From the NCBI GenBank assembly GCA_046330135.1, contig JAXLTI010000004.1, positions 1,174,394-1,238,393 of the forward strand: a stretch of DNA of 64,000 bases, given 5' to 3'. A program made the position numbers and the translations under genes. The notes beneath the pieces are model-generated. The model was given only the letters and a program-made list of their open reading frames with translations. It was not told the origin of the DNA and made no database searches. Origin of the DNA: a bacterium. GTDB taxonomy: Bacteria; ARS69. Shown here one piece after another: positions 56,648 to 64,000 of this stretch (positions are counted from its first letter, which is position 1; the number at the start of each line of letters is the position of its first letter).

Positions 56648-57238
56648 AGGACCTCCGCCAGCCGTCCACGTGGACCCGGAAGGGTCCGAGCGGCAGCTTC
56701 CGACGCGCTCAGGGCCCCCGGAGGCCGAAGGTGTTCAGCCGGTTTCCCCACGCCCGCCCGCGAAGGAGGCACGGTACGGGCCTTTGCGGAAGCTCGCAAG
56801 TGTTTTCGTTCACAAGCAGGGTCAGTCAACCCTCTCGTGGGCAGCGTCCCTCCCGTCGGTGCCGGGCCTCGTAGCCGGAATTGGCTCTCCGCTAGATTCG
56901 TGAGCGAAAGTCCGGCACCCTGGATGCCGATCTAGGGGGGACCGCCGTCGATCCGGTCCGGGTGGTGCCCCGGGGCGCTTTTCCCCGGCTTCACCCCTTG
57001 CGTTCGGACCCCGGGGTTGTGCTAGAATGGCCACCGGCCCGGGAGGCCAGGGTGCCTTCGTAGGAAATGACCTCTGGGGCCGCGCGGAATCTCGGTGCGC
57101 GGCGGTGCTGGGGCGGAAAGGGCGAGCTCCTTCGAATGAAGGGCTTGAACTCATGCCCTGGGATTGCTAGAGTAGCGAGTGCGAACAGGGTCCACTCAAC
57201 CCGGTGTCGCGCTCACTGAATCGATTCGGAGGAACACC

Positions 57239-57790
57239 ATGAAGCGTATCCTGACGATTGCTCTCGCTCTGTTGGTGATCGCGATGCCGGCGTTTGCCCA
57301 GCAGCAGTACGGCTGGACGGTCAGCGCCAGCCAGACCGACCCGCACATGAACACCGGCGGCCTCGCTGCTGGCGGGCTCGGGCACCTGTACCTCTGGTAC
57401 TTCTGCAACGCCCCGATGGGAATGTCGGCTGCGGACATGGGCCTGGCGGCCACGGGCGTCGTCTTCGCGGGCTTCTCGCCGTTGAACGGCTTCCTGAACG
57501 CGGGCTCCGGCCAGAACCTGCTGCTCGCGGTCGGTGGCTGCCCGAACGGCCCGGTCGCGGCGGGTGACATCACCGTCTTCTACTTCGGTGGCGCTGGCAG
57601 CATGTGCATCGTCAACTCGAACAACAACATTCGTGTGACGGTGGACTGCACCTCCCCCACGCCGAGCGCGTGGGACATCCACGCTGTCGGTTGGGATGCC
57701 CTCGCGGCGCCCGCCTGCAGCGAAGTGCTCTGCCCGCCCACGGCCGTCGAGCCTCAGAACTGGGGCGCGATCAAGAGCCTGTACCGCTAA
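57239..57790 (+). CDS. small secreted protein: standalone QQYGW/DPHxNTGG domain with a W-x-x-IK-x-LYR C-terminal tail
   Basis: ATG 57239 with GGAGG RBS. Signal peptide MKRILTIALALLVIAMPAFA. About 60% identical over about 150 aa to the N-terminal domain of the 4230..6140 protein. Ends EPQNWGAIKSLYR. Confidence 0.65.
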   Translation: MKRILTIALALLVIAMPAFAQQQYGWTVSASQTDPHMNTGGLAAGGLGHLYLWYFCNAPMGMSAADMGLAATGVVFAGFSPLNGFLNAGSGQNLLLAVGGCPNGPVAAGDITVFYFGGAGSMCIVNSNNNIRVTVDCTSPTPSAWDIHAVGWDALAAPACSEVLCPPTAVEPQNWGAIKSLYR

Positions 57791-57820: not shown

Positions 57821-57855
57821 GCGGGGCCTCCTCTCGGAGGCCCCGCTTCTTTTTG
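57821..57855. terminator. bidirectional Rho-independent terminator
   Basis: AAAAAGT-GCGGGGCCTCC-TCTC-GGAGGCCCCGC-TTCTTTTT is a perfect 11-bp GC stem with a 4-nt loop, flanked by an A-tract and a T-tract. It lies between the convergent genes at 57790 (+) and 57921 (-). Confidence 0.7.
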
Positions 57856-57920: not shown

Positions 57921-58553
57921 TCAGCCGAAGCTTCCGGGCATCACGACCTGCAGTGCGTGCACGAGAAGACGCTCGGCCCTCCGCAGCTGACGCACGTGGT
58001 AGGGCTCGTCGGAGGAATTCCACAGGAACGCGAACGCGGCGGGCACCGTGTCCATGCTACGCGCCCGCTGATTCCGGAGGGACAGCACTTCCACCAGCTC
58101 CTCGGCGGACCACACGTCAGGTCGCAGCCGATCCACGTCCATCCAGATCTCACGGAATCCGAAGAGCAGCTCTTGGATGTCGTGCATCGCGGCGCCGTGC
58201 TTCAGGAGGTACCGAACGACTCGGTCCATCTCCGGCAGGTCGGCGAACTCCTCGACTTGCGGCAGCTTCGGTGAGCGCCCGTGCGAGCGCATCGCCTTCG
58301 GCAGGAACTCCACGCTCGCCTCGACGCCCTGCTGGCCGAGCCAGCGGAAAGCGCCGCGAATCGGGCCCCCGTCATATCCGATCATCCACGAGGCGGCGTA
58401 TTCGGGCGGACCCGAGCCGTGGGGTGGGGGACCCCAGGGAGGAGTGACCTTCTCGAAGCGCGAGAGACGGTAAAGGTCCTTCGGAAGCGGCTGCTCGAGG
58501 AACGCCGCCACGAGCTCCGGAGCGGTCCGGTAGATCGAACGAGTGCCGGGCAC
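57921..58553 (-). CDS. hypothetical protein
   Basis: C-terminal 210 aa of the 371-aa table ORF have normal composition (start set at GTG 58553). The upstream part is Pro/Arg/Gly-rich and overlaps the thiC leader. No family recognised. Confidence 0.4.
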   Translation of the reverse strand: MPGTRSIYRTAPELVAAFLEQPLPKDLYRLSRFEKVTPPWGPPPHGSGPPEYAASWMIGYDGGPIRGAFRWLGQQGVEASVEFLPKAMRSHGRSPKLPQVEEFADLPEMDRVVRYLLKHGAAMHDIQELLFGFREIWMDVDRLRPDVWSAEELVEVLSLRNQRARSMDTVPAAFAFLWNSSDEPYHVRQLRRAERLLVHALQVVMPGSFG

Positions 58554-58834
58554 GTCCGCACCCTCCTTCCGACGCGGGTGGGCGCCCGGGCGTGACCGCC
58601 GCTCCGGGAACCCACCGGCAACGGGTGGAGGGGTGACCCGACCCGCGCCGGGTCCACGGCCAACGCCCCACTCGACGCCTGCCGCCCCGACCAAGCAACT
58701 GACACACTGGCAAGGAGTTGCGGGACGGTCCACGACGGTGGGGGCCGACCGCGAGAGTCGCCCTTCCCATCGCTCCGAACATCCCACGGAATTGCGCGCG
58801 AAGCAAGGGTCGTGCGAAGAGGCATAGGGGCGCA

Positions 58835-58975
58835 GCAGCGGTCCGCTGGACTGAGACGAGCCTCCGGCCAGGGTCAGTCGGGGTCGGGACGAGTCCTCCG
58901 GCGGCGCCGACGGGTCGTCGGCTGGACCCGGCCGGTGCGATCCCCTAGATTCCGGACAACGGAGATCTTGGAGGT
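58835..58975 (+). ncRNA. candidate TPP (THI-box) riboswitch in the thiC leader
   Basis: A 440-bp untranslated leader precedes thiC. It contains GGACUGAGACGAG (the CUGAGA box) and a downstream GGCUGGACCCGGCCGGUGCGAUCCCCUAGA segment that could form P4/P5 and close P1 against an upstream GGGGCGC. The pyrimidine-sensing ACCUGAUCYGG-UAAU box is not clearly recognisable, so this is low confidence. Confidence 0.25.
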
Positions 58976-58992
58976 CCCTGAAGGGAGGATCC

Positions 58993-60462
58993 ATGGCCAC
59001 GATCGAGCAGGGGATTCCCGCGGAAGCTTCCGCCATCGGGCGCGACGTGGGCGCGGGCTACGGCGATCTTGCGGGAATGACCCCCGTCGCGCCGCTCCGC
59101 TCCGAGTGGGTCGCGCGACGCCGCAATGACTCGGTGCGGACGCAGATTCGCTACGCGCGAGAGGGCCTCGTGACCGAGGAGATGTGGGTCGTGGCGCAGC
59201 GCGAGGCGCTCTCCCCGACCTTCGTTCGTGACGAGGTGGCGCGCGGGCGCATGATCATCCCCGCGAACGTCCACCACGAGAACCTCGTGCCGATGGCGAT
59301 CGGCATCCACGCGCGCTGCAAGATCAACGCGAACATCGGAAACAGCGCCGTCACCTCGGACGTCGAGGGCGAGCTCGAGAAGCTCCGGCGCTGCATCAAG
59401 TACAAGGCCGACACCGTGATGGACCTCTCCACGGGCGGCGGGATCGACGAGATCCGCGAGGCGGTCATCCGCCACAGCCCGATCCCCGTCGGGACCGTGC
59501 CGGTCTATGAAGCCGTGCAGGCCGTGCGCAAGGCGCAGGATCTGACCGCGGACGGGCTCGTGGCCACGATTCGCCACCAGGCGGAGCAGGGCGTGGACTA
59601 CATGACGGTCCACGCGGGCATCCTCCGCAAGCACCTCCCGCTCGTCGATCGGCGCATCACCGGCATCGTGAGCCGCGGCGGCTCGATCATGGCGATGTGG
59701 ATGCTCGCCCACCGGCGGGAGAACCCGCTCTACGAGCGCTACGACGAGATCCTCGAGATCTGCCGCGCGCACGACGTGTCGCTCTCGCTCGGCGACAGCT
59801 TGCGACCCGGCTGCATCCACGACGCGTCGGACGATGCGCAATTCGCGGAGCTGGACGTCCTGGGCGAGCTGACGGCTCGCGCGTGGGAGAAGGACGTGCA
59901 GGTGATGGTGGAGGGTCCGGGACACGTGCCCCTGGACCAGATTCCGATGAACATCCAGCGCCAGATCGAGGTGTGTCACGAGGCGCCGTTCTACGTGCTG
60001 GGTCCGCTCGTGACCGACGTGGCGCCCGGCTACGACCACATCACGTCGGCGATCGGCGCTGCGGTGGCGGGCCAGCACGGCGCGGCGATGCTCTGCTACG
60101 TCACGCCGAAGGAACATCTCGGGCTGCCGAAGGCGGCGGACGTGCACCAGGGCATCATCGCCTATCGGATCGCGGCGCACGCGGCGGACGTGGCGCGCGG
60201 GCGGCCGGGGGCGCGGGACTGGGACGATGCCATCTCCCGCGCGCGCTACACCTTCGACTGGCACGAGCAATTCGCGCAGTCCATGGACCCCGAGGTCGCC
60301 CAGTCCATGCACGACGAGGACCTGCCCCACGAAGCGTTCAAGACGGCGGAGTTCTGCTCGATGTGCGGGCCGAAGTTCTGCTCCATGAAGATCTCTCAGG
60401 CCGTCGACGAGTACAACGCGAAGCTCCGCCGCGGAGAGGTCGTCGGGACGGCGGCGCTGTAG
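58993..60462 (+). CDS. thiC: phosphomethylpyrimidine synthase
   Basis: 489 aa, conserved throughout ([14 protein letters not shown]-like VPVYEAV) with the C-terminal CxxCxxxxC radical-SAM cluster [11 protein letters not shown]. Confidence 0.95.
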
Positions 60463-60606
60463 TCGGGCCGGGACGCCGCCCGAGACCGCGGTCGCGCGCT
60501 GCAGGGTGTGGAGGGGGTGCTCGACGAGCGCCCCGCTCCGAAGTAAATTTGCGACCGCTCAGTCCACTGTGATAGTCTGGGCGTCCCCCCTGAAAGAAGG
60601 CACGTC

Positions 60607-61212
60607 ATGGCCCGCGTGTCCGCGTCCCGGGCCGTCGCCGCGCTGGCGGCTCTCGGCCTGGCCGGTTGCATCACCTCTCCCGATCAGGCGCCCAAGCCGC
60701 ACGATCTGCCCGGCTACACCGACCCCTCGGCGTTCGTGCAGGCCTACGCCGCTTCGCTGCAGGAAAGAAACCTGGCCAACTACCGGAAGCTCCTCGCGGA
60801 TGAGTTCGAGTACTTCCCGAGGGCCGCGGATCTCCCCATTCCCTGGCTCGACGGCGACTCCTGGGGCTACGCCGACGAGCTCGGCATGATCGGACACATG
60901 ATGGACTCCGCGTTCGTCCCGAAGGACCCGGACTGCGGCGCCGTTCGCGCGATGTACGCCGAGCTCACGGTGTCCTCTCGGCGCGACGTCGGCGACGGAA
61001 CGATCGAGGTCGGGACCGTCGGTTTGATCCGCGTCGTCTGGGGCGCGGACGGCGGGGGGGTCGCGAACGCGCGCTTCGTCTTCGATCTCGCGAGGGGCGA
61101 GGACGGGTATCTCCGCCTGCGCGCCATGCACGAGCTCCCGCTGTTCCGGGAGGGATCCCTCGAGGTCACTCCCCGGACCTGGGCCGGTCTCAAGGCGGGC
61201 TACCGCGAGTAG
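60607..61212 (+). CDS. NTF2/SnoaL-like lipoprotein, member 1 of a tandem paralogue array; C-terminal W-x-x-LK-x-GYRE
   Basis: Lipobox LGLAGC. Family blocks Y.DP.A.V.AYA..L..R.L..Y..LL.D.F.YFP....LP.PWL.GDSWG...ELGMIGHM. Ends TPRTWAGLKAGYRE. Confidence 0.6.
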   Translation: MARVSASRAVAALAALGLAGCITSPDQAPKPHDLPGYTDPSAFVQAYAASLQERNLANYRKLLADEFEYFPRAADLPIPWLDGDSWGYADELGMIGHMMDSAFVPKDPDCGAVRAMYAELTVSSRRDVGDGTIEVGTVGLIRVVWGADGGGVANARFVFDLARGEDGYLRLRAMHELPLFREGSLEVTPRTWAGLKAGYRE

Positions 61213-61232
61213 TTGGAAGGGGAAGCGTCCCG

Positions 61233-61820
61233 ATGTCGCGCCCGTGCGTTCGAATCGCGAGCATCGCCGGCCTGCTGGGGCTCTTCGCGGCCGGATGCCT
61301 CACGGATTCCGACAAGCCGTCGGGCGCGGTGGCGGGCACCACGGATCCGGCGACGCTCGTGGCGAGGCACGCCGCGGCTCTCTCGCACCGCGACTACGAT
61401 GCCTATGCCGCGCTTCTCAGCGACGACTTCATGTTCTACCCGGGGTCCCTCGCCATCCTGGACACGAGCGACCTCCAGGACTTCCCCTGGCTGACCGGGG
61501 AGGGCGCGTTCGCCTGGGACCGCATCGGCGAGCTCGGCATGATCGGGCAGATGTTCGCGACGCCGAACACGTCGATCGGAGCCGCGTTCGAGGTGCTGAG
61601 CATTCGAGGCACGTTGGACGCGGGCTTCGACGTCGACACACACGCGACCTTCAGCGTGGCCTCGCGCACTTTCAGTGCCGAGGCGGACACGCGCCTCGTC
61701 TTGCGCCTCTCGAAGGCGCGCGACGGCTACCTGCGCATCCACTCGATCCGCGAGATCCCGCCGGAGCTCTTCTACGGGGGAGTGACCTGGGCTGCGATCA
61801 AGATGAGGTATGAGCCATGA
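61233..61820 (+). CDS. NTF2/SnoaL-like lipoprotein, member 2
   Basis: Lipobox FAAGC. Blocks TDPATLVARHAAALSHRDYDAYAALLSDDFMFYP and FPWLTGEGAFAWDRIGELGMIGQMF. Ends VTWAAIKMRYEP. Confidence 0.6.
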   Translation: MSRPCVRIASIAGLLGLFAAGCLTDSDKPSGAVAGTTDPATLVARHAAALSHRDYDAYAALLSDDFMFYPGSLAILDTSDLQDFPWLTGEGAFAWDRIGELGMIGQMFATPNTSIGAAFEVLSIRGTLDAGFDVDTHATFSVASRTFSAEADTRLVLRLSKARDGYLRIHSIREIPPELFYGGVTWAAIKMRYEP

Positions 61821-62947
61821 CCACCGCTCGCAACCTGCGCATCCTCCTGGGGCTGGGCGCCGCGCTCGCGTCGGCGGCGTGCGGGCACGACGACGGACCC
61901 ACGGCGCCGCCGCACTTCACGGAGCCCGCCGCGCTGGTCGGGGGCTACGCGACGGCCTTCACGGCGCGAAACGCCGGCGCATGCGTGGATCTGCTCGAGG
62001 CCGCGAGCGGTACGAGCGGCGGCTTCCGTTTCTTCCCGAAGAGCGAGGATCTTCCGGCCTTGGATTGGCTCGCCGGCGACAGCTGGGGCTACGAGCGCGA
62101 GGGAGGGATCCTCTCCAACATGCTCGACCGGACCTACGTGAGCGAGGCGGCGGCCGCCGCCGGGTTCACCGGCGTGGGCACGCTGACGCTCGAGACGGAC
62201 TCGACCACCCCGCTCGCGGGGCACGAGTACGACGTCCTCGCCTCGGGGACTTTCGCGATGAAGCGCGCCGCCCTTGCCGACGTTCTCTATCCCGTCGGGC
62301 TGCGCTTCGTGCTGGCGACGTCGACGGACGGCACCCTCGTGATCCGCGAGATGCACGAGCTGTCCATGGGGATGGACCGCTCGCCGGGCGCGCTGAGCTG
62401 GGGGACGGTGCAGAGCTGGTACCGCGAGCCGCCGCCGCGGTACACGGATCCGACCGCGCTGATCGCGGCGCACGCCGCCGCGCTCACGGATCGCGACCTC
62501 GAAGACTACGCGAGCCTCCTCGACGGCAGCTTCCAGTACTTCCCGCAGCCCCAAGACCTCAGCGATCTTCCGTGGATGACGGGCTCGTCGTGGGGGCGCT
62601 CGGACGAGCTTGAGATGATCCGCCACATGTTCGACCCGAGCTACGAGCCCATGGGCTCCCACGCGGGGAGCATCGACTCGATCCACGCGACCTTCCAGGT
62701 TCTCCACGTCCAGCCGGACTCCATCCTCGGTGGGACCCAGGTCTCGACGAGCGCCGTTCTTCAGGTGATGTACGACGCGTCGAGCGGCGCGGCGGCCAAT
62801 GTCCGATTCGACTTCCACCTCGTGTCGCACGACGGGCATCTCCTCATCTCGGAGATCCGCGAGCTGCCGCTCCACGCGCCGGCCCGTGACGAGTTGCCGG
62901 TCGAGCCGCAGACCTGGGCGAACATCAAGGCGCTGTACCGAGAGTGA
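61817..62947 (+). CDS. NTF2/SnoaL-like lipoprotein, member 3 (internally duplicated: two family domains in one protein)
   Basis: Lipobox LASAAC. ATGA overlap with member 2. First repeat ends ALSWGTVQSWYRE and runs directly into the second repeat PPPRYTDPTALIAAHAAALTDRDL...; the second ends PQTWANIKALYRE. Confidence 0.6.
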   Translation: MTTARNLRILLGLGAALASAACGHDDGPTAPPHFTEPAALVGGYATAFTARNAGACVDLLEAASGTSGGFRFFPKSEDLPALDWLAGDSWGYEREGGILSNMLDRTYVSEAAAAAGFTGVGTLTLETDSTTPLAGHEYDVLASGTFAMKRAALADVLYPVGLRFVLATSTDGTLVIREMHELSMGMDRSPGALSWGTVQSWYREPPPRYTDPTALIAAHAAALTDRDLEDYASLLDGSFQYFPQPQDLSDLPWMTGSSWGRSDELEMIRHMFDPSYEPMGSHAGSIDSIHATFQVLHVQPDSILGGTQVSTSAVLQVMYDASSGAAANVRFDFHLVSHDGHLLISEIRELPLHAPARDELPVEPQTWANIKALYRE

Positions 62948-62991
62948 CGGGCGTCGCCGAGCCGGAGTGCAGTGAACAGGAGGCAACCCAT

Positions 62992-63615
62992 ATGACCACC
63001 CCTCGTACCCTGAGTCTCTTCCTGGGGCTGACTGCCGCGCTCGCGTTGGCGGCATGTCACGACGACACCTCGACCGGTCCTCCGACCCACTCCGGTCCGC
63101 CGAGGTACAACAATCCGAACGCGTTGATCGACGCGCACGCGTCGGCGCTCACCAACCGCGATCTCGCGGCCTACACGAACCTCCTCGACGAGGGCTTCCA
63201 GTACTTCCCGCAATCGGAAGACCTCGCGGACTTGACTTGGCTGACGGGCGACTCCTGGGGACGAGCGGACGAGCTGGGGATGATCGGCCACATGTTCGAC
63301 CCGGACTTCCAACCTGCCTCGGGCATGCATGCGGGGAGCGTCGACTCGATCGACGCGACCCTCACCGTCGTGACGGTCCAGCCGGCGCCCACCGGCGTCG
63401 GGTACGTGGTCACGACGCACGCCGTGATCCGAGTGATGTACGACGCCTCGAACGGCGCCGCGACCGACGTCCGGCTCGAGTTCCACCTCGTGCCGCACGA
63501 CGGGTACTTCCTCATCTCGGAGATCCACGAGATGCCGCTTCACGCGCCGGCGCTGTCCGGGATGCGGGCGGTCGAGCCGTCCTCCTGGGGGCAAGTCAAG
63601 TCGCTGTACCGCTAG
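62992..63615 (+). CDS. NTF2/SnoaL-like lipoprotein, member 4
   Basis: ATG 62992 with AGGAGG RBS. Lipobox LALAAC. NPNALIDAHASALTNRDLAAYTNLLDEGFQYFPQSEDLADLTWLTGDSWGRADELGMIGHMFD. Ends PSSWGQVKSLYR. Confidence 0.6.
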   Translation: MTTPRTLSLFLGLTAALALAACHDDTSTGPPTHSGPPRYNNPNALIDAHASALTNRDLAAYTNLLDEGFQYFPQSEDLADLTWLTGDSWGRADELGMIGHMFDPDFQPASGMHAGSVDSIDATLTVVTVQPAPTGVGYVVTTHAVIRVMYDASNGAATDVRLEFHLVPHDGYFLISEIHEMPLHAPALSGMRAVEPSSWGQVKSLYR

Positions 63616-63635
63616 GCATGCGCGAGGGTCCGGCC

Positions 63636-64000
63636 ATGACCGACGCCAGACGGCTGGGCCACTTCCTGGGATGGAGCGCCGCGCTCGTGCTGACGGCGTG
63701 TCGGTGGCGGCCGACCGCTCTTCTCCTCCGCCGAGTTTCGCGACGGTGCAGGCCTGGTACCGTCACCCTCCGCGGAGGTACTCCGATCCGAACGCGCTGA
63801 TCGACGCGCACGCGTTTGCCCTCACGAACAAGATGTTCGACGAATACGTAGGCCTCCTCGACCCGTCCTTCGCGTACTTCCCGCCGCCCTGGGACGTCCC
63901 GGATCTCCCCGTCCGGCTCGCCTTGCGCACGCACGGCCGCCGGCGTTCGCGTCTCGACGGGCGGTGTGCCCCGGCGCCCCGAAAGGCCAAACCCTTGCTA
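63636..64000 (+). pseudogene. degenerate fifth copy of the lipoprotein family (frame-shifted), running off the window
   Basis: The lipoprotein-like N-terminus (MTDARRLGHFLGWSAALVLTAC) is in frame 0 and stops at 63800. Family sequence continues in another frame from about 63722 (SFATVQAWYRHPPRRYSDPNALIDAHAFALTNKMFDEYVGLLDPSFAYFPPPWDVPDLP), then diverges where W[LM]TGDSWG is expected. This is either a pseudogene or local sequence errors. Confidence 0.3.

Follow-up and report, generated by a model that had tools for sequence, protein, structure and literature searches.

Arrays of tandem lipoprotein paralogues in bacteria are a well-known kind of locus, in which genes of one strand are tightly spaced, copy number varies and fusions, truncations and pseudogenes occur. 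All of these features recur in the array that we describe here, which lies downstream of thiC at the 3' end of a 64,000-nucleotide stretch of bacterial DNA (contig JAXLTI010000004.1 of assembly GCA_046330135.1; lineage ARS69) that we refer to as the window and whose positions are used as coordinates throughout. The window has a G+C content of ~69%, the array genes are labeled A to F, and compared loci carry L-numbers. Two features set the array apart from other tandem lipoprotein arrays, namely the fold and family of its products and a conserved, slowly evolving gene, the F-type gene, that caps it. We see no evidence here of programmed variation, antigenic switching or a host.

The described families nearest in sequence are the NTF2-like families DUF4440 (PF14534) and SnoaL-like (PF12680/PF13474), which have the alpha+beta cone in common with the array proteins. 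These named families are mostly cytoplasmic single domains, whereas the array proteins are predicted to be exported lipoproteins with a tether, a PW(L/M)TGDSWG..DEL insertion and a C-terminal tail. Tandem arrays of small NTF2-fold paralogues are also typical of polymorphic-toxin immunity islands. A literature search for NTF2-like lipoprotein arrays found no relevant paper. The array itself is ordinary, in that an NTF2-like fold and tandem lipoprotein paralogues produced by unequal recombination are both familiar, and its biochemical role is probably not exceptional. It adds a fairly large, unnamed family of NTF2-like lipoproteins known only from metagenomes, and it is a clear worked example of tandem paralogues giving rise to fusions, single-domain derivatives and remnants. 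The one feature of the locus that could be new is the tail.

Results and Discussion

Taken as a whole, the locus is in our view somewhat more probably than otherwise a birth-and-death array of envelope lipoprotein genes that encode ligand-binding cones, with a location directed by the tail and a gene content remodeled by recombination. A member would consist of a Sec/signal peptidase II (SPase-II) signal peptide with its lipobox Cys, a 15-20-residue Asp/Pro/Gly-rich tether, one NTF2-like cone (two in C) and, in most cases, a 16-residue tail. Recombination between similar tandem copies would remodel the array between thiC and the F-type gene, with the two-domain genes arising as head-to-tail fusions, D through in-frame loss of domain 1 and E from a two-domain gene gutted by two deletions. 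The lipid-anchored cones may bind a small ligand in a cavity or, less likely, convert one; this putative cavity would be marked by a near-invariant Phe, two Trp and two Glu, and the paralogues may differ in ligand specificity. The tail, finally, would direct or hold the protein at a common envelope site or partner, as it would for other tail carriers.

The first-pass annotation of this DNA had described five consecutive same-strand paralogues with lipoboxes and 35-50% identity, one of them internally duplicated and the last frame-disrupted. Four genes, A to D, are indeed intact and each encodes a lipobox. The fifth, E, is decayed, and the array continues beyond it to a sixth member, F (U0167_10615, 292 amino acids), which starts ~65 nt past the window end (window-equivalent ~64065). 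The identity estimate was roughly right, the range from pairwise blastp of the five intact domains being wider at 29-62%, with E-values of 1e-7 to 1e-75 that leave the paralogy in no doubt. Highest are C2 (the second domain of C) and D at 62%, followed by A-D and A-C2 at 41% each, while B is 32-38% identical to the rest and C1 29-38%. A family hidden Markov model (HMM) matches all array genes, A with an E-value of 7e-78 and C with two full-length domains, at 2.5e-62 (residues 14-205 of the open reading frame, ORF) and 4.6e-75 (residues 205-377), so that the internal duplication stands; two-domain orthologues of C are P0005-P0007. The close packing that had been noted is also borne out, with B and C overlapping by ATGA (61817-61820) and spacers of 20 nt (A-B), 44 nt (C-D) and 20 nt (D-E). 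The ORF of gene D is listed from a GTG at 62944, the likely start being the ATG given in the table, from which the 207 residues of the NCBI protein follow. All four intact genes are annotated 'hypothetical protein' in their NCBI records.

The N-termini of A to D each comprise a short basic stretch, a hydrophobic stretch and a lipobox Cys, the signal peptides ending in ..LGLAGC (A, lipobox LAGC), ..LFAAGC (B, AAGC), ..ALASAAC (C, SAAC) and ..ALALAAC (D, LAAC); those of E and F end in ..ALVLTAC and ..AAALAGC. With an n-region, an h-region and a lipobox Cys within ~35 residues, as expected of bacterial lipoproteins, lipidation is predicted. Across 96 single-domain representatives of the family the Cys reaches at least 90% conservation, and nearly all of 177 inspected sequences have it; the proteins were thus correctly taken for paralogous lipoproteins. 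The Cys is followed by an acidic stretch with the family consensus C-[GS]-D-D-[SPD], two acidic residues at +3/+4 being the commonest pattern (Asp at +3 in 47 and at +4 in 64 of 138 sequences). In the array the corresponding residues are C-H-D-D (D), C-G-H-D-D (C), C-I-T-S-P-D (A) and C-L-T-D-S-D (B). The surface-lipoprotein export signal (LES) of Bacteroidota, C-X-K-(D/E)2-X (PMC5080379), likewise has acidic residues after the Cys. In contrast to the LES, the Lys/polar position is mostly Gly or Ser in the present family, and A and B fit poorly; moreover, the LES has been tested in Bacteroidota only and the host of the array belongs to another phylum. A surface location is thus only suggested by the acidic stretch.

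An exhaustive profile search with the family retrieved 792 representative clusters (50% identity) at E<=1e-3, 65 of them at E<=1e-30. All representatives come from metagenomes or metagenome-assembled genomes (MAGs), and members with a named source are all 'hypothetical'. Two domains are found in 21 of 179 sequences and three domains in 3 proteins. In D numbering, E94 is invariant among the 96 single-domain representatives, and L65, F69, W83, W89, G171 and E180 are, like the Cys, at least 90% conserved. The AlphaFold2 model of mature D is confident (predicted local distance difference test, pLDDT, 87.5; predicted template modeling score, pTM, 0.83), with the element order H-H-E-H-H-E-E-E-E. In a Foldseek search against the PDB, 404 matches passed E<=1e-3 and NTF2-like proteins fill the first 50 places; the best have E-values of ~1e-6, template modeling scores of up to 0.74 (normalized to target length) and identities of 10-17%. 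Among the matches are the CaMKII hub, SgcJ, dioxygenase beta subunits and scytalone-dehydratase-like proteins. In these models the assignment to the NTF2-like superfamily, whose alpha+beta cone has N-terminal helices against a curved sheet of 4-6 antiparallel strands, holds at the level of the fold. The model of C (pLDDT 88.5) contains two such cones, both halves having the same fold, and its pTM of 0.62 does not fix the relative orientation of the two domains. With halves that are well folded and a pTM at this value, a fixed pseudo-dimer is neither supported nor excluded by the model.

While the NTF2/SnoaL-like fold proposed by the first-pass annotation is upheld by structure prediction, membership of SnoaL or DUF4440 is not. 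DUF4440 falls short of its gathering threshold of 25.2 bits in the array proteins (B 17.4, D 14.8, no match for A and C), and it is seen at E<0.01 in 14 of the 96 representatives, at best 6.5e-6, so that at the sequence level the relation is remote and short of membership. Among the SnoaL-type models (PF07366/PF12680/PF13474) only SnoaL_3 responds, to B, with 14.4 bits against a cut-off of 22; SnoaL_2 is found in 3 of the 96 representatives, with an E-value of 0.004 at best. NCBIfam gave no useful match for the array proteins beyond a sub-threshold 'ketosteroid isomerase-related' signal, and a PDB sequence search with the 96-sequence profile found nothing below E 0.6, solved structures being undetectable by sequence. 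The array proteins are therefore an unnamed NTF2-like lipoprotein family for which no Pfam or NCBIfam model reaches threshold. A SnoaL-type polyketide cyclase was considered and rejected, given that the members have both a signal peptide and a lipobox Cys and that polyketide synthase genes are missing from the neighborhood. The single-copy cytoplasmic cyclases that the first-pass annotation had named as the homologues that would speak against its lipoprotein call are not what is found; the homologues are lipoproteins, often in tandem.

The fold nevertheless invites a catalytic interpretation, in which the array would encode envelope-anchored enzymes of the SnoaL, ketosteroid-isomerase or limonene-epoxide-hydrolase type, with the two Glu serving as acid/base on a lipid, isoprenoid or aromatic compound and the paralogues corresponding to different substrates. 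Many of the structural matches of the NTF2-like fold are enzymes, one Glu is invariant and the second at least 90% conserved with conserved aromatics beside them, and the sub-threshold SnoaL, DUF4440 and 'ketosteroid isomerase-related' signals point the same way. We nonetheless consider such a function unlikely, as no enzyme family reaches threshold, NTF2-like families serve mostly as modules for binding or scaffolding, and dN/dS (the ratio of nonsynonymous to synonymous substitution rates) values of 0.4-0.55 together with frequent gene loss suit dispensable binders better than core enzymes.

The last ~16 residues of most family members follow the pattern ..V-E-x-S-[ST]-W-G-x-[IV]-K-x-L-Y-R. 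A, B and D end in ..VTPRTWAGLKAGYRE, ..VTWAAIKMRYEP and ..VEPSSWGQVKSLYR, respectively, and C contains in addition an internal copy, LSWGTVQSWYRE, at its domain junction. The tail is absent from one branch of the family (L008, L009), and in the F-type proteins it is degenerate and internal. The same tail is carried by neighboring secreted proteins that are unrelated to the family, in the window as well as in L002 and L006 (see table). Further carriers were collected in a degenerate DNA scan of metagenomes, in which carrier counts refer to the matches listed and are lower bounds. At least 136 ORFs end in the motif, and only 4 of the 136 listed belong to the NTF2-like family. Another 105 of those listed are at least 150 amino acids long; 81 of these 105 have a signal-peptide-like N-terminus and, once the tail is removed, the 81 fall into at least 39 unrelated BLAST clusters. 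LTD, CHRD and NHL-propeller proteins are among the carriers, and weaker matches point to others of cupredoxin-like and NosD-like beta-helix type. Across 121 unrelated carriers, positions that the search pattern leaves free are informative from -16 to -10, [TV]-[PA]-[VTA]-[EQR]-x-[ST]-[TS], and Cys is frequent at -20 to -18, with no conservation further upstream. Tail-bearing proteins end at ..LYR or 0-8 residues past it.

The neighboring tail carriers are mostly members of a fast-evolving, Cys-rich family of ~185-residue secreted proteins with a signal of the signal peptidase I type, encoded two genes 5' of thiC. One copy is present in the window, two each in L002 and L006 and three in L130, the proteins are 39-51% identical between genomes, and no Pfam match is on record.

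A C-terminal position on many unrelated signal-peptide proteins is likewise the hallmark of LPXTG, PEP-CTERM and GlyGly-CTERM signals and of the C-terminal domain of the type IX secretion system (T9SS). Unlike the first three, the tail motif has neither a transmembrane helix nor a basic cluster behind it, and a signal of this class was rejected because the proteins terminate at ..LYR and no CTERM model matches (NCBIfam, 14 tail-bearing proteins). The T9SS C-terminal domain is a beta-sandwich of roughly 80-100 residues. The tail is far shorter, its conservation spanning the last 16-20 residues only, and this candidate was rejected as well; neither Por_Secre_tail nor FlgD_ig matches the tail-bearing proteins. 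Pfam and NCBIfam hold no model for the tail, and our literature search retrieved no paper on the motif or on sorting signals in Gemmatimonadota or Eisenbacteria that would fit it.

We tentatively propose, as a possibility that we hold well short of even, that the tail, [C]-x-x-x-[TV]-[PA]-[VTA]-[EQR]-x-[ST]-[TS]-W-G-x-[IV]-K-[AS]-L-Y-R-COOH, may be an undescribed localization or anchoring tag of Sec-exported proteins that differ in fold, in many uncultured soil and sediment bacteria, for which the array would supply a client family tethered at both ends. Since there is no transmembrane segment of the sortase/exosortase type, a tag of this sort would imply a recognition partner or machinery. 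If the tail is a sorting or anchoring signal it would mark a whole class of the secretome in poorly known phyla, point to new envelope machinery and provide annotators with a simple sequence flag.

Gene order around the array is shared by the window, L002 ('uncultured Gemmatimonadota bacterium'), L006 (MAG 'bacterium isolate BC1.91') and L130: an ATP-synthase operon (minus strand), 1-3 copies of the ~185-residue secreted-protein gene, a gene for a 210-residue protein (minus strand), thiC, the array and the F-type gene. Alcohol dehydrogenase, RecQ and EVE-domain genes lie 3' of the F-type gene in L002 and L130. In order to compare copy numbers we counted the genes between thiC and the F-type gene. 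There is one in L130, two in L002, at least two in L007 (where the contig ends just upstream), three in L006 plus one copy split over three frames, three in L004, and four in the window, with five domains and the remnant E. In L004, the closest relative (67-76% amino acid identity), the three genes are an orthologue of A (71-72% amino acid identity) and two two-domain genes, again five domains; gene B is missing, the A orthologue being followed directly by the two-domain genes. A difference in array length among relatives, which the first-pass annotation had put forward for checking, is thus evident.

In all loci compared the array is closed by the conserved F-type lipoprotein of 280-297 residues, which is composed of an NTF2-like domain, a degenerate internal tail (..LTYGQLKVQVE) and a ~90-residue domain (..TGLTPDTLYYYRIVA..) that, on inspection, looks Fn3-like. 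At least seven tandem members, one of them N-terminally truncated (153 amino acids), are found in L131, which is from a distant lineage with 64% G+C. Their neighbors are dihydropyrimidine-dehydrogenase-type and aminotransferase genes rather than thiC. With tandem members in L131 as well, the tandem layout belongs to the family and is not confined to this genome.

The same neighborhoods bear on whether these are NTF2-like immunity proteins against polymorphic toxins, which a tandem array of NTF2-fold genes resembles on general grounds. We regard this as very improbable: toxin-like or secretion-system neighbors are lacking at the window, L002, L004, L006, L130 and L131, all members are lipoproteins whose tail is common to ordinary secreted proteins, and the position next to thiC is conserved.

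As a side observation, the copy directly 5' of the F-type gene in L006 is of full length and split over three reading frames, and an intact orthologue is found in L007. The split copy represents either a second case of decay or a faulty assembly, at the array position that E occupies in the window.

Between genomes thiC is 85-90% identical, whereas the array proteins are 30-47% identical. Gene-wide Nei-Gojobori estimates of dN/dS are 0.11 for thiC (window vs L002, dS 0.75), 0.14 for F, 0.37 for A and 0.53-0.55 for C (all window vs L004, dS ~0.4-0.5), and 0.32-0.57 for D against its domain-2 relatives (dS 0.44-0.70). For the deep paralogue pairs A/B and C1/C2 divergence is saturated and dN/dS drifts towards 1, making these comparisons uninformative; every informative pair has a value below 1. 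F evolves far more slowly than the other members; these are under relaxed constraint, and positive selection is unsupported gene-wide.

These rates bear directly on the suggestion of the first-pass annotation that the array reflects selection by phages or a host. On this view positive selection would diversify a family resembling surface antigens, whose members might serve, for instance, as receptor decoys or variants. Copy number does vary between close relatives, the array proteins do diverge far faster than the flanking housekeeping genes, and the acidic residues that follow the Cys recall a signal for surface export. The suggestion is nevertheless not supported and we judge it improbable. 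Gene-wide dN/dS remains below 1 in every pair (0.3-0.55, vs 0.11 for thiC), PADLOC finds no similarity to defense systems, and the locus contains no mobile or phage genes, its housekeeping synteny (ATP synthase, thiC, alcohol dehydrogenase, RecQ) being stable in four genomes. In addition, the family derives from free-living soil and sediment metagenomes, and we saw neither hypervariable segments nor a diversity-generating element.

The record of remodeling is clearest in E. Its frame is lost directly after the lipobox Cys; for 63624-63702 the counterpart in L004 is the 5' end of a two-domain gene, at 75% identity. The second piece, in another frame, matches L004 2533-2700, the domain junction of a 376-residue gene, at 73% (blastn) and covers HMM positions 27-76 (E 8e-13); the remainder of domain 2 is deleted before the spacer upstream of F. 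Because the pieces map to the end and the junction of a two-domain gene and are then followed by the F spacer, E carries two internal deletions and is, as far as its sequence can be read, what is left of a two-domain gene, which goes beyond the frame disruption noted at first. It has no NCBI locus tag.

A related history can be proposed for D, which is 62% identical to C2 and 66-71% identical to domain 2 of the two-domain genes in L004. In a neighbor-joining tree that resolves into F-type, 'domain 1' and 'domain 2' clades, D falls into the last. The signal peptides of D and C match at 14 of 22 residues. Given this C-like signal peptide and an identity of only ~30% between the domain bodies of D and C1, we consider D most likely a former two-domain gene from which domain 1 was lost in frame.

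Several points weigh against the overall reading of the locus as a recombining array of tail-directed binding proteins. The biochemical role is drawn from the fold, and the lining of the cavity by Trp and Glu is putative. Fusion of a C1-type with a D-type gene is one of two readings and would fit D equally well, except for the similarity of the signal peptides. As regards the tail, its Trp retains at least 90% conservation where the tail lies internally, at the domain junction in 18 two-domain proteins, and AlphaFold2 models the tail confidently as a short strand plus helix; because it is conserved internally and placed with confidence, the tail could partly cap the domain structurally instead of acting as a free signal at the C-terminus. 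Finally, errors made in assembling repetitive DNA could in principle account for the frameshifts of E and of the L006 copy, which would then be no real pseudogenes but near-identical repeats put together wrongly. MAG assemblies do collapse or chimerize tandem repeats, and E sits between similar copies. In the independent Logan assembly of run SRR26348421 (L001), however, 3647 nt agree base for base with the window, beyond which it extends by 438 nt that show F. The disruption of E is therefore found by more than one assembler, though the NCBI MAG and Logan assemblies probably derive from the same reads. The paralogues, with at most 76% DNA identity over short stretches, are too divergent for repeat collapse, and the junctions in E join what can be recognized as parts of a gene to the spacer that is conserved 5' of F. 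Mis-assembly thus appears to us to have only a slim chance of being correct, and we retain the birth-and-death reading.

With respect to expression, the 144-nt spacer between thiC and A holds a promoter-like element, whose -10 region is, together with the 5' leader, partly conserved 5' of the L004 A orthologue. It scores under the threshold of our consensus scan, and we regard it as a weak candidate. The scan found neither promoter nor terminator between thiC and the array or within the array, and Rfam gave zero matches at gathering thresholds over the whole window, hence no RNA element in the array. A thiamine link, or an operon with thiC, was rejected as a functional inference because the L131 array has another context and because the 144-nt spacer with its promoter-like element precedes A; the linkage is limited to one clade.

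Feature Coordinates and Flanking Genes

Table 1. Positions of array genes, remnants and neighboring features (window coordinates unless a locus is named)
Feature	Coordinates	Strand	Description	Basis
thiC	58993-60462		upstream of array	
Promoter-like element 5' of A	60549..60576	+	TTGCGA, 16 nt, TGTGATAGT (extended -10-like)	read from sequence
Gene A	60607..61212	+	U0167_10595, 201 aa, single NTF2-like domain	ORF
Gene B	61233..61820	+	U0167_10600, 195 aa, single domain	ORF, blastp, family HMM
Gene C	61817..62947	+	U0167_10605, 376 aa, two domains, one signal peptide with Cys	
Gene C, domain 1	61817-62428	+		
Gene C, domain 2	62429-62947	+		
Gene D	62992..63615	+	U0167_10610, 207 aa, single domain, identical to P0001; likely start ATG 62992	
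Tails of A, B, C, D	61171-61212, 61779-61820, 62906-62947, 63574-63615	+		
E, piece 1	63636..63701	+	start ATG 63636, signal peptide, lipobox Cys (MTDARRLGHFLGWSAALVLTAC)	three-frame translation
E, piece 2	63740..63907	+	other frame: domain-1 end, internal tail SFATVQAWYRH, ~50 residues of domain 2 (PPRRYSDPNALIDAH..FAYFPPPWDVPDLP)	
Conserved spacer 5' of F-type gene, start	63976..64000	+		blastn vs L004 3101-3209, 82%
F-type gene	L001 3712-4083; L002 10830-11672			
~185-aa secreted family, window	57236-57790	+	tail 57746-57790	
~185-aa secreted family, other loci	L002 5676-6224, 6458-7009; L006 4565-5140, 5337-5930; L130 2542-4466		same tail	
Further unrelated secreted protein	L002 19822-20388		same tail	
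Tandem members in distant lineage	L131 1-4146			
Split copy 5' of F-type gene	L006 10503-11343		three reading frames	
Intact orthologue of split copy	L007 719-1342			
210-aa gene	57927-58553	-		
Spacer 5' of thiC	58554-58992		~440 nt, 70% G+C	
Terminator-like hairpin	57821-57846	both	11-bp stem	

Some minor observations concern the region upstream of the array. The spacer 5' of thiC contains no thiamine pyrophosphate riboswitch at Rfam gathering thresholds. The 210-residue protein, for which no Pfam match is on record, is 69% identical in L002 and L006, and in the loci compared its gene always lies between the secreted-protein genes and thiC. In the window a terminator-like hairpin separates this minus-strand gene from the convergent gene for the ~185-residue secreted protein. 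It is bidirectional, with 10 G-C pairs in its stem and T-runs on both strands, and is the only strong terminator of the scan.

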